The position numbers and the translations under genes were made by a program. A stretch of DNA of 11,870 bases from a candidate division WOR-3 bacterium (GTDB taxonomy: Bacteria; Hydrothermota; Hydrothermia; Hydrothermales; Hydrothermaceae): the NCBI GenBank assembly GCA_039803745.1, contig JBDRZD010000049.1, positions 1-11,870 of the forward strand, in the 5' to 3' direction. The notes below the pieces were generated by a model, which ran no database searches, was not told the origin of the DNA, and was given only the letters and a program-made list of their open reading frames with translations. Positions 7,536-11,870 of the stretch are shown here, in pieces. Within the stretch, counting starts at the first letter, position 1, and every line of letters starts with the position of its first letter.

Positions 7536-7859
7536 ATGAAATTTTTTAATTTTTTGATTTACTTTTTAACTTTATCCTTTTTCTTTTTTATTCTTATTTT
7601 TAAAAAAGAAGAGAAAAATAAAGGAGCGCCTTATGAAGGTGGCGCACCTTCAGATTATAATTTAAATATAAAAGTTGAAATAAAATTTCTCAAAATTGTT
7701 ATTTTATTTTTGATTTTAAATACATCTATAGTTTATCTTTTACCATGGGCTTATAAACTGGAAAAGATGGGATTTTTTGGTTTATTTTTTGGTCTTATAT
7801 TTTTATTCATTTTACTTTTTTCTTATTTTTACATTTTAAGAGAAAAAGGAATTGAATAA
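7536..7859 (+). CDS. nuoA: NADH-quinone oxidoreductase subunit A-like (NuoA), divergent
   Basis: Three hydrophobic segments, loop motif PYEGG (canonical PYECG/PYESG) and LFLI...YLLPWA; lies directly upstream of nuoB. Confidence 0.8.
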   Translation: MKFFNFLIYFLTLSFFFFILIFKKEEKNKGAPYEGGAPSDYNLNIKVEIKFLKIVILFLILNTSIVYLLPWAYKLEKMGFFGLFFGLIFLFILLFSYFYILREKGIE

Positions 7860-8283
7860 GAGTATATTTTGGAGTAAATTGGATAAATTTGTTTCATGGT
7901 CAAGGAGTCTTTCATTATCAGTGAATTTATTTCCTCAAGGATGCTGTGGAGTTCAAATTTTATCAATAATTTCTTCGGAATTTGATTTAAAAGTTTCTCC
8001 AAGAGGGGCGGATTTACTGATAGTTGCAGGACCAATTTCAAAGAAGATGGTTCCTTTTATAAAAAGAATATATGAGCAAATGCCTTATCCAAAATGGGTG
8101 ATAGGATTTGGAGCCTGTGCATTAACAGGTGGTCCTTTTTATAGAAGTTATTCTGTTTTAAAATGTTTAGATGAAATAATACCGGTTGATTTTTATGTTT
8201 CGGGTTGCCCTCCTTCTTTTGATTCCTTAATCAAGGCAATTAATATGATCCAGGAAAAAATAAGAAAGGAGAAAGGAATTTGA
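7852..8283 (+). CDS. nuoB: NADH-quinone oxidoreductase subunit B-like (NuoB, N2 cluster)
   Basis: Tandem Cys GCCG, SPRGADLLIVAG, YEQMPYPKWVIGFGACALTGG and VDFYVSGCPP. TTG start overlaps nuoA by 8 nt. Confidence 0.93.
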   Translation: MNKSIFWSKLDKFVSWSRSLSLSVNLFPQGCCGVQILSIISSEFDLKVSPRGADLLIVAGPISKKMVPFIKRIYEQMPYPKWVIGFGACALTGGPFYRSYSVLKCLDEIIPVDFYVSGCPPSFDSLIKAINMIQEKIRKEKGI

Positions 8284-8759
8284 TAGAGGAGATTAAAAGT
8301 ATTCTTAAAGAGAAATTTGGAGAAAATATAGAATTTGAAGAAAAAGGAAAAGAATTTATGATAATTGTGGATAAAGATTTTCTTTTTGAATGTTTAAAAC
8401 TTTTGAGGGAGCATCCCTTTTTATTTTTTGATTTTTTAACTGATATTACTGCAATAGATCATTATCCTCAGGATAAGAGGTTTGAAATTGTTTATCATCT
8501 GTATTCTTTCAAATTCTCAAGAAGAATAAGGGTGAAAAGCAAATTGGAAGAACCTGAAATTAAATCATGTGTATCAATATGGAAAAGTGCATCGTGGCCT
8601 GAAAGAGAAATTTATGAAATGTTTGGAATACATTTCTTTGACCATCCAAATTTAAAAAGCCTTCTTTTATGGGATAAATTTGAAGGTTTCCCTTTAAGAA
8701 AAGATTTTCAAATTGATTCTGAGATTCGGAGTCCTGATTTTAAAGATTTAGAGGAATGA
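8280..8759 (+). CDS. nuoC: NADH-quinone oxidoreductase subunit C (NuoC)
   Basis: Motifs FDFLTDITAIDH, RFEIVYHLYS, WPEREIYEMFGIHF.DHPNL and EGFPLRKDF. TTGA start/stop overlap with nuoB. Confidence 0.93.
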   Translation: MIEEIKSILKEKFGENIEFEEKGKEFMIIVDKDFLFECLKLLREHPFLFFDFLTDITAIDHYPQDKRFEIVYHLYSFKFSRRIRVKSKLEEPEIKSCVSIWKSASWPEREIYEMFGIHFFDHPNLKSLLLWDKFEGFPLRKDFQIDSEIRSPDFKDLEE

Positions 8760-9874
8760 TGGAATTAAATATAGGACCACACCATCCATCAACTTGTGGA
8801 TTCAGAATAAAACTTTTTGTGGAAGGTGAAAAGATAATTAAGGCAGAATTAATGATAGGTTATATTCATAAAGGGATTGAAAAAATTTTTGAAAATCTTA
8901 ATTATATTCAAGGAATGATTCTTTCTCATAAAATTGATAATATTTCTCCATTTTCTGGCAGTTTCTCTTATGTTCTTGCAGTTGAAAAACTCCTTGATAT
9001 ACAAATTCCATTAAGAGCCCAGTATATAAGGGTAATAATTTCAGAGTTTTCAAGGATAAGTTCTCATTTATTCTGGCTTGGAACATTTTTAAATAATCTT
9101 GGCTTTTATCTTCCCTCTATTTTTGCATTAAGGGAGAGAGAAAGATTAAATAACTTAATTGAAGAGGTAATACCAAAAGGAACTTTATATTTAAGAATAG
9201 GTGGTGTTGCAAGAGATTTACCTTCGGGATGGATGGAAAGAACTTTGGATTTTCTTGAAGATTTTGAAAAAAAAGTTTATCAAATTGAGAAAACTGTTTA
9301 TGACAATGAATTTTTTATTTTAAGAACAAAAGATATAGGGATCATAAATATTGACTTGGCATTAGAACTTTCATTAACAGGACCTGTATTAAGGGGATGC
9401 GGGGTTGCATGGGATATAAGAAAAGTTTTTCCTTATTCATCTTATGATAATTTTGATTTTAAAATTCCTGTAGGTGAAAAGGGAGACTGTTATGATAGAT
9501 TTTTTGTAAGGATGGAAGAAATAAAGGAATCAATAAAAATTATAAGACAGGCAATCAAAAATTTACCCGAAGGAGAGATAATTGCTAAAGATCTTGATAT
9601 TATTCCTCCTAAAACAATTCCCCATTTTAAAGTTATTGCAGAAGGAATAAATATAAAAGAAGGGGAGGTGTATTCAAGTATTGAGAGTCCAAGGGGTGAA
9701 TTTGGATTTTATATAGTTTCAAAAAATTCTACAAAACCACACAGAGTAAGAATTAGAAGCCCTTCTTTTTATAACCTTCAGGTTCTTGAATACATATTAC
9801 CAGGAAATTCAATATCAGATTCAATTATAATCATAGGAAGCCTTGATGTTTCTCCTTTTGAAGTTGATAGATGA
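8756..9874 (+). CDS. nuoD: NADH-quinone oxidoreductase subunit D-like (NuoD, 49-kDa family), divergent quinone site
   Basis: Motifs LNIGPHHPST, GYIHKGIEK, LAVEKLL, EFSRISSHL, RIGGVARDLP, TGPVLRGCGVAWDIRK..PY, GDCYDR, ESPRGE, RSPSF and C-terminal EVDR. No CxxC Ni-binding motifs. Confidence 0.93.
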   Translation: MMELNIGPHHPSTCGFRIKLFVEGEKIIKAELMIGYIHKGIEKIFENLNYIQGMILSHKIDNISPFSGSFSYVLAVEKLLDIQIPLRAQYIRVIISEFSRISSHLFWLGTFLNNLGFYLPSIFALRERERLNNLIEEVIPKGTLYLRIGGVARDLPSGWMERTLDFLEDFEKKVYQIEKTVYDNEFFILRTKDIGIINIDLALELSLTGPVLRGCGVAWDIRKVFPYSSYDNFDFKIPVGEKGDCYDRFFVRMEEIKESIKIIRQAIKNLPEGEIIAKDLDIIPPKTIPHFKVIAEGINIKEGEVYSSIESPRGEFGFYIVSKNSTKPHRVRIRSPSFYNLQVLEYILPGNSISDSIIIIGSLDVSPFEVDR

Positions 9875-11870
9875 TGGGCAAGATTAAAATAAATGGAAAG
9901 GAATTTAAATTCAATGAAGGTGAGACAATATATACTGTTGCAAAAAGAAATAATATATTTATTCCTGTCTTATGTTATCATTCCCAGTTGAGAATAACTG
10001 GTTCTTGCGGAATATGTGTTGTTGAAGTTAAGATAAATGGAAAATCCGAACTTTTAAATTCCTGTTCCGAATTTGCAAAAGAAGGGATGGAAGTTTTCAC
10101 AGATTCTGAAAGGGTTTTAAAGAAAAGAAAAGATATTATAAAATCTTTAATTTTAAATCATCCAGTGTATTGCTCCCTCTGTGATAAAAATGGTATTTGT
10201 TTGCTTCAGGATTATACATTGCTTTATGGAGAAAAATTGGAAGAATATAAATATGAAAGAGAAATAAAAGAGTATAAAATAGAACCATTTATAAAATTCT
10301 ATCCTGATCTATGTATATTCTGTGAAAGATGTAATAGATTCTGGAATGAAGAGCTAAATGAAGGTGAAATTATTTTAATTGATAAAGAAAAAAAAGAGGT
10401 AAGATTATTAAAAGATAAAGATATTTTAAAGGGTTTTTTGAATTATCTTATAGATATATGTCCAACAGGTGCATTTTCAGAAAATATATCCCAAATTTAT
10501 GCAAAACCATGGGATTTAGAAAGAATTGATACCTATTGTACTTTTTGCTCCCTTTTCTGTGAAATAAGACTTTACATCAAGAAAAAAACAAAAACAAGGA
10601 CATATGAAGGAGGAAGAAAATTTTTACCTGATAGAATTTTTGATATAAAATATCAAAATAAGGGATTAATTGACAGTGTAATATGTGATAATGCAAAATT
10701 TGGGAGGGATTTTATTTCAAATGATAAAATATTAAAGAGGGCAAAAATAGAAGGAAAGTGGAAAGAGATAGATATGGATGAAATAGTTTTAAATTTAAAA
10801 AATAAATTAAAAAAATATATAAGTGAAGAAACAGGAATCATTTTGTCCCTTAATATGGGTAATGAGGAGATTGACTCTTTAAAAGATTTTTTTGTAAATG
10901 AAAAAAGAATAAAAAATTTTTTGATTGTTCCAGGTTTTTTTGATACTTCTTTTAATTTAATGAAAACTAATTTCAAAATAGAAGATATAGAGGATAATAC
11001 ATTTATTTTACATACAGGTTATGATTTCTTTAATTCCCATCCTGTAATCGGATTTGAAATTTTAAGAAGATTGAGAAAATTTAAAAAAGTGAATTTATTT
11101 TCGCTCTCTTATGAAAAGGGGAAGATTCAAAGAGAAGCAAATGATTTCTTATTAATAGATAATAATACATTTAAGATTTTAAAGGTTTTATTTAAAAAAT
11201 TGTATAAAGAGTTTGGGGTTAAAAAGGAGATTGAGGAGGAATTTTTGAATTCCTTTCTTTTTTTAAGAAAAATAGAAAACCTAAATGAGGATAATATTTT
11301 AAAAGAGTTGAATTTTGAAAAGGGAAGATTTTCTAAAATTGTTAAAAGTATCATAAATTCAAAAAAATTGGTTGTTATCTATCAAGATTTTATACCCTTT
11401 GAAATCCAGAAATTATGTTATTCCTTTAAATATATAAAATTTCCAGTGAAAATTTTAATATTGAGAATGTGGCAGAATACAGAATATTTTTTAAATAAAA
11501 AATTTCCAATAATAGATATTTATGAATTCAAAAGAAAAGTTGAAAATGGTATGATAAAATTTGTGATGATTTTTAATGTTAATCCATTTTTATTTATAAA
11601 GGATGAAGAATTTTTAAAAAATATTTTTGAAAAATGCGAAATATTTGTTTTTGATTCATTTAATGGGACGCATGCAGATTTATCAAATAATGTGGTTCCC
11701 CTAAAAACATTTTATGAAAAAGAAGTAAAAGTTATGGATAATTTTTGCAATATAAAGGAAATTAAAAAGGTTTTTGAAAGTGAAAGAATTTATTTACCGG
11801 AAATAATTTCCAGATTAAAAGGAAAGGAAAGTGAAGAGATAAATTTTGAAGAAAAGATTGAAATAGATTT
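9871..11870 (+). CDS. nuoG: NuoG-like Fe-S subunit (75-kDa family), 3'-truncated by the window end; absent from the ORF track
   Basis: Manual translation from ATG 9871 (ATGA overlap with nuoD) is open for 666 codons to the window end: MMGKIKINGKE..IPVLCYHSQLRITGSCGICVVE..NSC (2Fe-2S, N1b), NHPVYCSLCDKNGICLLQD (N5), CIFCERC..DICPTGAF (N4), KPWDL..TYCTFCSLFC..ICDNAKFG (N7), then a weakly recognisable molybdopterin-oxidoreductase-like region. Confidence 0.88.
   Translation, partial: MMGKIKINGKEFKFNEGETIYTVAKRNNIFIPVLCYHSQLRITGSCGICVVEVKINGKSELLNSCSEFAKEGMEVFTDSERVLKKRKDIIKSLILNHPVYCSLCDKNGICLLQDYTLLYGEKLEEYKYEREIKEYKIEPFIKFYPDLCIFCERCNRFWNEELNEGEIILIDKEKKEVRLLKDKDILKGFLNYLIDICPTGAFSENISQIYAKPWDLERIDTYCTFCSLFCEIRLYIKKKTKTRTYEGGRKFLPDRIFDIKYQNKGLIDSVICDNAKFGRDFISNDKILKRAKIEGKWKEIDMDEIVLNLKNKLKKYISEETGIILSLNMGNEEIDSLKDFFVNEKRIKNFLIVPGFFDTSFNLMKTNFKIEDIEDNTFILHTGYDFFNSHPVIGFEILRRLRKFKKVNLFSLSYEKGKIQREANDFLLIDNNTFKILKVLFKKLYKEFGVKKEIEEEFLNSFLFLRKIENLNEDNILKELNFEKGRFSKIVKSIINSKKLVVIYQDFIPFEIQKLCYSFKYIKFPVKILILRMWQNTEYFLNKKFPIIDIYEFKRKVENGMIKFVMIFNVNPFLFIKDEEFLKNIFEKCEIFVFDSFNGTHADLSNNVVPLKTFYEKEVKVMDNFCNIKEIKKVFESERIYLPEIISRLKGKESEEINFEEKIEID

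Follow-up and report, generated by a model that had tools for sequence, protein, structure and literature searches.

Can a complex I subunit that has lost the residues with which it would hold and protonate quinone still be of use to a cell, and if so, for what? The question is raised by nuoD2, a gene for a NuoD/49-kDa subunit paralogue that lies in an 11,870-base stretch of DNA (hereafter the window), which is the entire contig C49 of the draft genome G000 (1.67 Mb in 100 contigs, 29.6% G+C, 93.5% complete). The gene forms part of a tight operon, nuoA2-nuoB2-nuoC2-nuoD2-nuoG2, in which neighbouring genes overlap by 4-8 bases. Together with membrane-subunit genes on other contigs this operon makes up a second complex I set, here termed Nuo-2, next to a canonical set termed Nuo-1. 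The comparisons below suggest nuoD2 to be, probably, part of a catalytically dead and partly dismantled complex I paralogue that would be kept for a role other than the reduction of quinone.

NuoD2 and its quinone site

Phmmer aligned NuoD2 to Thermus thermophilus Nqo4 (2fug_4) with an E-value of 5.4e-89, residues 2-372 of the query falling on 26-409 of the chain. The alignment places Cys14, Asn62 and Asn114 opposite His38, Tyr87 and Asp139, as proposed by a first-pass annotation that had described a NuoD without the quinone-binding His, Tyr and Asp and with a Cys at the His position. Its further observations hold as well: the Arg before the Tyr position has become Lys59, and gaps of 2 and 10 residues relative to Nqo4 coincide with the unusual IPKGTLY segment and with the roughly 10 residues reported as missing before HFK. 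An excerpt of the study in PMC7434922 describes H38, within the beta1-beta2 loop (33-QHPSTHG-39), as paired with D139, credits H38 and Y87 with donating the protons to quinone, and reports Y87 to be conserved and essential for activity. Two further departures lie at the ends of the protein. The C-terminal motif reads LDVSPFEVDR where the canonical one reads LDPVLGEVDR, and the N-terminus is truly short, with about 20 residues missing, because just four more codons are open 5' of the nuoD2 start (376 residues in all).

In both sequence and fold, NuoD2 is a member of the NuoD family (PF00346), but one without the ligand triad. An AlphaFold model based on a 20-sequence alignment reached a predicted template-modelling score of 0.80 and a mean predicted local distance difference test score of 77.4, with low confidence at residues 52-63 and 281-317, and its best Foldseek matches were 49-kDa chains of complex I (template-modelling scores 0.75-0.79). 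Among 30 NuoD loci, consisting of the window and the best-hit loci of 29 relatives from the same class, 27 have the His/Tyr/Asp triad in the ligand columns, so that the substitutions do not reflect chance variation. Three loci depart from it: the window (C/N/N), its congener G003 (Q/N/N) and a distant NuoD-like gene of G012 (T/V/T). The last of these (locus L032, G012:C1:80250-84338) reads IPRICVP in place of TDRxDY and is 37.5% identical to NuoD2; it probably represents another branch of the superfamily, Ehr/Mbx-like or hydrogenase-like.

The Cys14 codon is covered by contigs of three public runs from three studies, one of which may be the window's own source sample, and no other letter is listed there, which speaks against a slip of the assembly. 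Within nuoD2, the public contigs differ from the window at three positions, 8981 (G>T, Val76Phe) and the synonymous 9136 and 9193, a number too small for a population pN/pS. Beyond this population, a protein search returned four close clusters of 371-372 residues, namely P0001 (94% identity), P0002 (83%), P0003 (81%) and P0004 (74%, the G003 protein), hereafter grouped with NuoD2 as the stripped clade. They are followed by a jump to proteins of 392-394 residues and 58-61% identity, all of them canonical. Residue 14 is covered by 14 of the 15 members of the 90% cluster around the window protein: 12 read PSTCG, each of them 99-100% identical to the window and one being the window's own protein, and two read PLTQG (P0001 and P0132, the latter 98% identical). 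Over the 17 database sequences of the clade that cover the site, the tally is 12 Cys and five Gln (P0001, P0002, P0003, P0004/G003 and P0132); P0124 and P0125 were left out, as they are one protein in two pieces that abut at 110/111 on one contig (a broken gene or a contig/scaffold boundary).

The codon at this site is CAT (His) in the canonical sisters, CAA (Gln) in G003 and TGT (Cys) in the window, and the flanking residues of the loop differ within the clade, too. Since Asn62 is found in every clade sequence covering its site and residue 114 is Asn or Ser, yet site 14 is either Cys or Gln, the loss of the triad is, judged from these sequences, a feature of the clade, and Cys14 a population-level variant at a position freed to change.

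A second cysteine behaves differently. Residue 215 of NuoD2 (window 9398-9400), a near-invariant Ser (LRGSG) in canonical NuoD, is Cys in all five clade sequences compared, in the context RGCG, RSCG or RCCG; this is a conserved gain of Cys, unlike Cys14.

The wider Nuo-2 set: residues, genes and rates

To place NuoD2 among its partners, the remaining Nuo-2 subunits were read from alignments to solved chains and to the sisters G001 and G004, which served as the canonical comparison; the numbers given for key E. coli NuoA, NuoH, NuoK and NuoM positions are those we take to apply. Relative to Nqo6 (2fug_6), NuoB2 retains C45, C46, C111 and C140 but carries E49Q and R69K and lacks 61-68, a state common to G003, with G001, G004 and G008 being canonical. 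In NuoA2, aligned to E. coli NuoA (3rko_A), D79 is replaced by Asn and E81 by Ser, and 11 residues are missing after transmembrane helix (TM) 1; the acidic pair of TM2 reads FDVE in G001 and G004 and LNTG in G003. Of the PDB sequences, 9tam_A (NADH-quinone oxidoreductase subunit A) matches NuoA2 best, and it reads FNVE where 3rko_A reads FDVE. It thus has Asn at E. coli position D79, the same as the natural state of NuoA2, and may be an engineered variant.

NuoH2 has the Q44-G56 motif replaced and carries E157Q and E216V; this segment, running from TM1 to amphipathic helix 1 (AH1), is presumably part of the cavity lining. Both transmembrane Glu of NuoK2 are gone, the second being already absent in the sisters, which keep the first; within the stripped clade, NuoK2 was readable in G000 only. 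NuoM2 has lost three of four key residues (E144G, K234N, E407T) and kept K265. The states of NuoA2, NuoB2, NuoD2, NuoH2 and NuoM2 are common to G000 and G003; G001 and G004 have the canonical state throughout.

According to the excerpt of PMC10212512, loops of NuoB and the TM5-6 loop of NuoH line the quinone cavity, and the TM1-2 loop of NuoA seals it; the same excerpt sets out the E-channel glutamates and the GluTM5/LysTM7/LysTM8/Lys-GluTM12 sets. Measured against an energy-converting complex I, Nuo-2 has kept the ligands of N2 and the other iron-sulfur (Fe-S) clusters. Its NuoB cavity loop is deleted and its NuoH cavity segments are altered, and its E-channel and antiporter-like residue sets are incomplete, with NuoN2 retaining its full set. 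Canonical quinone binding had been judged unlikely from NuoD2 by itself, and this assessment is borne out and extended: the ligands are gone, and the partner cavity elements in NuoB2, NuoH2 and NuoA2 are altered too.

Stripping of residues is accompanied by a loss of genes. G001 (same genus) and G004 (same family) carry SNase-nuoA2B2C2D2E2F2G2, the SNase gene encoding a staphylococcal-type nuclease. The window reads A2B2C2D2G2, with nuoG2 directly following nuoD2 at a 4-base overlap and nuoE and nuoF missing between them. G003 reads A2B2C2D2 and continues with an unrelated 265-residue gene without Pfam match. The order kdsA, SNase, nuoA2 is syntenic with relatives. The G003 gene in the nuoE2F2G2 place (L033 16142-16939, - strand) is predicted to encode a secreted protein and lies between nuoD2 and a convergent DUF72 gene; nuoG2 was not found elsewhere in this genome, which is 67% complete.

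In G000, the NuoF family (PF01512) has no match anywhere in the 93.5%-complete assembly, and tblastn of the G001 and G004 E2, F2 and L2 proteins against G000 recovered no orthologue, the best L2 match being the L1 paralogue at 41.6%. The Nuo-2 of G000 accordingly lacks the NADH-oxidising module (NuoE, NuoF) of a 14-subunit complex I. Its membrane genes are scattered over C50 (nuoH2), C16 (nuoI2J2K2) and C60 (nuoM2N2), with a peptidase gene after nuoK2 where the sisters carry nuoL2. The same four loci (A-G; H alone; IJK(L); MN) are seen in G001, G003 and G004, even where the complex looks fully functional. The closest congener, G002 (98-99% identity in Nuo-1 proteins, 75% complete), gave no match to D2, H2, J2, G2 or M2; it also lacks the flanking groEL-kdsA-SNase DNA, and this was not counted as loss. 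A scan of genome contigs with NuoD2 yielded nothing from the clade, just distant NuoDs at 34-47% identity, and was not used further.

G000 has two PF00346 genes. The other one, encoding NuoD1, is part of nuoA1B1C1D1H1I1J1K1L1 on contig C9 and keeps GPQHPASHG, DY and LD. NuoD1 (C9 17640-18812, - strand; locus L001 1498-2670), with His/Tyr/Asp in place, lacks about 21 alignment columns around HHFK, a longer gap than that of NuoD2, and has a GGALGGGS insertion after the Asp139 helix. Nuo-1 is without E, F and G genes and so of the 11-subunit type. Quinone reduction in the G000 organism would fall to this canonical set, and the organism seems to be without any NADH-oxidising complex I module, whereas its congener G001 has one.

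How fast the second set has changed was assessed by phylogeny and by relative rates. A NuoD tree was built from 24 rows, the window and NuoD1 being joined by 22 of 120 listed hits (the nearest plus a spread). It recovered five clade sequences as monophyletic (Shimodaira-Hasegawa-like approximate likelihood ratio test, 100), and their stem measures 0.58 changes per site. The stripped clade sits within a group that includes canonical sisters (support 99), whose branches measure 0.05-0.09. As a relative-rate comparison, percent identity to the outgroup G004 was determined for G000 and for G001. It is lower for G000 in B2 (59.4 versus 86.5), D2 (60.2 versus 79.3), H2 (55.2 versus 75.0), M2 (50.6 versus 66.9), I2 (57.1 versus 70.8), K2 (54.9 versus 68.0), G2 (54.9 versus 62.5), C2 (65.2 versus 69.6) and N2 (50.7 versus 54.6). 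In D1, H1, L1 and the neighbouring penicillin-binding protein (PBP) gene, the two identities are less than 4 points apart.

Within NuoD, 118 columns are near-invariant among 25 canonical relatives, a set that excludes the G012 outlier, a row in which a stretch was masked and a further row of NuoD1 type. All five clade sequences have changed 26 of these columns and kept 92. The changed columns cluster at 14-15, 57-62, 114, 140-142, 285-289 and 366-368, and S57, H58, K59, N62, P140, G142 and C215 are identical in all five clade sequences compared.

The ratio of nonsynonymous to synonymous substitution rates (dN/dS) was estimated by the Nei-Gojobori method between G000 and G003, both of them stripped (dS 0.47-0.78). 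It amounts to 0.33 for nuoD2 as against 0.074 for nuoD1; set against their Nuo-1 paralogues, the values are 0.245 versus 0.080 for A2, 0.187 versus 0.064 for B2, 0.120 versus 0.049 for H2 and 0.132 versus 0.139 for C2. Compared with the working paralogues, NuoA2, NuoB2, NuoD2 and NuoH2 are thus under a purifying selection that is weaker by a factor of 2.5 to 4.5, and NuoC2 is not relaxed. When nuoD2 was evolved neutrally in simulation under the base composition of the genome, 2.5% of copies still had an open frame after 0.05 substitutions per site, and from 0.2 upwards none of 5000 did, yet all five lineages have kept frames of 371-372 codons without indels. Because the frames are intact in five lineages, neutral copies close and dN/dS lies at 0.12-0.33, the Nuo-2 genes are not pseudogenes.

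Candidate roles of the retained complex

The reading that we favour, and consider probable, starts from a redundant second complex I. Its NADH-oxidising part, nuoE and nuoF, was lost in the ancestor of this small clade of an uncultured hot-spring bacterium. Residues of the quinone site (NuoD2, NuoB2, NuoH2, NuoA2) and of the proton path (NuoA2, NuoH2, NuoK2, NuoM2) have changed, presumably through release from constraint or through reshaping, and gene deletion has continued by lineage, with nuoL2 gone in G000 and nuoG2 from the locus in G003. The set would thereby have ceased to act as a quinone reductase and proton pump. Because purifying selection, if weaker, is clear, the remaining proteins would still be made, fold and assemble, presumably into something that the cell uses, or tolerates only when intact. 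The product would be a catalytically dead pseudo-enzyme complex that serves the cell structurally, or in some other way outside respiration, and is probably heading for loss. Position 14 is free of constraint: the clade replaced His by Gln, and the population of the window carries Cys.

Several observations weigh against this account. All four key charged residues of NuoN2 are kept, and the Fe-S ligands of NuoB2, NuoI2 and NuoG2 are, in the alignment with the sisters, all intact. The dN/dS of 0.12-0.13 for H2 and C2 equals that of ordinary neighbours, which fits a retained real function over simple decay. The fixed pocket residues H58, K59, N62, P140, G142 and C215 would also fit a new ligand site. 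Finally, the losses of L2 (G000, 93% complete) and G2 (G003, 67%) rest on drafts; yet in both genomes the ancestral locus is seen without the gene.

It is possible, if tentative, that the stripped set is a pseudo-complex I which has taken up a new non-respiratory job, for instance as an uncoupled electron conduit or a membrane scaffold. Such a job is hinted at, in the same tentative measure, by the Fe-S wire, the intact NuoN-type subunit, the fixed His58, Lys59, Asn62 and Cys215, and the purifying selection; if true, it would offer a living example of a change of function in the complex I enzyme family.

The main rival of the favoured reading, and a less likely one, is a repurposed redox module. 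Electrons from some donor, not NADH, would here run through NuoG2, NuoI2 and the N2 cluster of NuoB2 and reach an acceptor that is not a quinone in the remodelled pocket, with no ion pumping. Such a module would explain why every cluster ligand is kept in B2, I2 and G2, and it sits well with the 4-base nuoG2-nuoD2 overlap, which persists after the deletion of E and F as in a working operon. The slight acceleration of G2, C2 and N2, an intact NuoN2, the fixation of H58, K59, N62 and the clade-wide Ser-to-Cys C215 in all five sequences, and a purifying selection that is clear throughout and strong on H2 and C2 point the same way. However, nuoG2 is gone from the G003 locus and none was found elsewhere in that 67%-complete genome, so that the wire is not universal; the position-14 loop, the part closest to where the head group used to bind, differs between members of the clade; none of the Nuo-2 loci examined has a candidate gene for a donor or an acceptor beside it; and the Fe-S cysteines may be kept just for folding.

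That Nuo-2 works as a non-canonical quinone reductase, with Asn62, His58 or Gln14, for example, hydrogen-bonding the menaquinone head group, appears unlikely. The lost ligands are replaced by polar residues, the N2 ligands are kept, and two genes of the UbiA prenyltransferase family in the genome indicate that a prenylated quinone or heme O is probably made. Against this, neither of the proton donors is left, nor is the Asp partner, and Y87 is reported as essential for activity in the PMC7434922 excerpt. Nor do the surroundings of the site favour it: NuoB is altered in its loop and NuoH in the TM1-AH1 motif and at E216, the electron-input module was not found in G000, the E-channel and NuoM residues are gone, and a canonical paralogue is available for the job.

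Very improbable is the proposal of the first-pass annotation that Cys14, lying beside N2, could perform thiol, disulfide or persulfide chemistry. In the near-identical population most sequences carry Cys (12 of the 14 members of the 90% cluster that cover the site), and it is present in contigs of three runs. Conservation in the nearest homologues was the check that the annotation itself had set, and there all four more distant lineages, along with the 98%-identical variant P0132, have Gln, within a loop whose neighbouring residues are variable; coupling residues are lost in the rest of the complex, and no sulfur-metabolism genes are adjacent in the window. The thiol/persulfide role was rejected, the residue not being conserved. 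The loose analogy with MBS drawn alongside it proved weak: NuoD2 nests among NuoD sequences, matches Nqo4 (E-value 5.4e-89) better than MbsL (6u8y_L, 5.6e-60) and belongs to a complex that has largely lost the ion-translocation residues on which MBS-type enzymes depend.

The least credible reading takes the genes for simple pseudogenes or for an artefact of assembly or binning: lost key residues, accelerated evolution and piecemeal gene loss would suit the former, but we rejected it on dN/dS (0.12-0.33) and the neutral simulation (0 of 5000 copies open, frames intact in five lineages), and the artefact on synteny of the locus with relatives and the recovery of the same sequence in independent public runs.

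How does the probable reading, that of a dead and partly dismantled paralogue, compare with known systems? With NuoD/Nqo4/NDUFS2 (PF00346), NuoD2 shares the fold, the family, the place in the operon after nuoA-B-C, 92 of 118 near-invariant columns and a nested position in the NuoD tree. It differs in the lack of His38, Tyr87, Asp139 and Arg84, the short N-terminus, the two deletions and the altered C-terminal motif, and in the absence of NuoE and NuoF from its set. The large subunit of group 4 [NiFe] hydrogenases binds Ni-Fe through N- and C-terminal paired-Cys motifs, whereas NuoD2 has a single Cys in the N-terminal loop and a C-terminal LDVSPFEVDR devoid of Cys. Placement in the MbsL/MbxL lineage is likewise contradicted by the nesting within NuoD, the weaker 6u8y_L match and a Cys14 that is not conserved.

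Ehr complexes are described, in an excerpt of PMC6349859, as members of the superfamily whose large subunit has lost its catalytic ligands. Ehr and Mbx/MBS resemble Nuo-2 in having a large subunit without the known active-site residues and a substrate that is unusual or not known. NuoD2 differs in having arisen recently from a bona fide NuoD, and it shares 58-61% identity with the canonical sisters. Furthermore, Ehr is thought to keep ion translocation via Mrp-like subunits, whereas NuoA2, NuoK2 and NuoM2 have lost such residues. This descent from canonical NuoD argues against membership of NuoD2 in the Ehr lineage, which stands by itself between the hydrogenases and complex I.

An excerpt of PMC10715153 reports a 'deranged' bc1 complex and a COX1-like protein in Acetobacteraceae, with genes intact, ligands lost and a structural role proposed. 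As in Nuo-2, respiratory-complex genes are kept there despite the loss of catalytic or cofactor ligands. The complex is another one, however, and the ligands lost there are those of metals, whereas Nuo-2 keeps its Fe-S ligands and loses the substrate site and the proton path. The 11-subunit NDH-1 of cyanobacteria and chloroplasts, described in the excerpt of PMC3144371 as being without the NADH module, is similar to Nuo-2 in the absence of NuoE and NuoF; it differs in keeping the quinone site and the pumping residues, such that Nuo-1 on C9 resembles NDH-1 and Nuo-2 does not. By analogy, Nuo-2 is in its behaviour closest to the Ehr-type and the 'deranged' bc1 complexes, without being one of the latter or, probably, of the former. 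In the literature searched, we found no account of a Nuo-operon NuoD in which all three residues are missing, nor of a complex I paralogue stripped in this way.

Module swaps and the rebuilding of the site beside the last Fe-S cluster are believed to be the way in which complex I, the membrane-bound hydrogenases, Mbx/MBS and Ehr evolved from one another. Nuo-2 may represent such a step, or else the orderly dismantling of a redundant complex, caught inside one genus and with canonical sisters for every subunit. The locus would provide a natural list of the residues that are freed once quinone chemistry stops, as opposed to those fixed for folding and assembly. It also carries a warning for annotation, as labels of 'NADH-quinone oxidoreductase subunit D' in this lineage do not signal a second working NADH dehydrogenase.

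Genomic setting of the operon

The positions of the altered NuoD2 sites, of the operon genes and of the membrane-subunit genes are compiled in Table 1.

Table 1. Coordinates of NuoD2 sites and Nuo-2 genes. Positions are those of the window unless a contig of G000 is named.
Feature	Position	Strand	Description
Cys14 codon TGT	8795..8797	+	aligned to Nqo4 His38
Residues 57-62, SHKIDN	8924..8941	+	in place of TDRxDY; Nqo4 alignment and clade comparison
Asn62 codon AAT	8939..8941	+	aligned to Nqo4 Tyr87; the Arg before Tyr87 is Lys59 here
Asn114 codon AAT	9095..9097	+	aligned to Nqo4 Asp139, the partner of His38
IPKGTLY	9170..9190	+	2-residue deletion relative to the GQRMNxxF/GQRFHHNY segment; Nqo4 alignment and relatives
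IPPKTIPHFK	9602..9631	+	site of the 10-residue deletion before HFK; Nqo4 alignment and relatives
nuoA2	7536..7859	+	107 residues, NuoA/ND3 homologue; Pfam PF00507, E-value 2.7e-15
nuoB2	7852..8283	+	143 residues, N2 cluster subunit; Pfam PF01058
nuoC2	8280..8759	+	159 residues, 30-kDa subunit homologue, little altered; Pfam PF00329, E-value 3.9e-40
nuoD2	8756..9874	+	372 residues, NuoD/49-kDa paralogue; Pfam PF00346 (Complex1_49kDa), E-value 1.6e-87
nuoG2	9871..11868	+	at least 666 residues, runs off the contig end; Pfam Fer2_4, NADH-G_4Fe-4S_3, Fer4_Nqo3, Molybdopterin
nuoH2	C50 3250-4176		stands alone, flanked by genes for a class A PBP and an ATP-dependent ligase
nuoI2J2K2	C16 22496-23604		G000
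nuoM2N2	C60 209-2937		G000

Upstream of nuoA2, the window carries genes for an aminotransferase, an aspartokinase, TrkH, GroES/GroEL, KdsA and the SNase. The public runs that contain the window sequence are labelled as hot springs metagenome, and none of those listed for the stretch is an RNA run. In an independent public run, a contig of 4,974 bases stops exactly at window position 11870, the same break as that of the window. Several public contigs have loose ends from 11634 onwards, and six differences cluster at 11787-11826, a pattern suggestive of differences between strains or of a repeat, lying just within the 3' end of nuoG2 (window 11634-11870).

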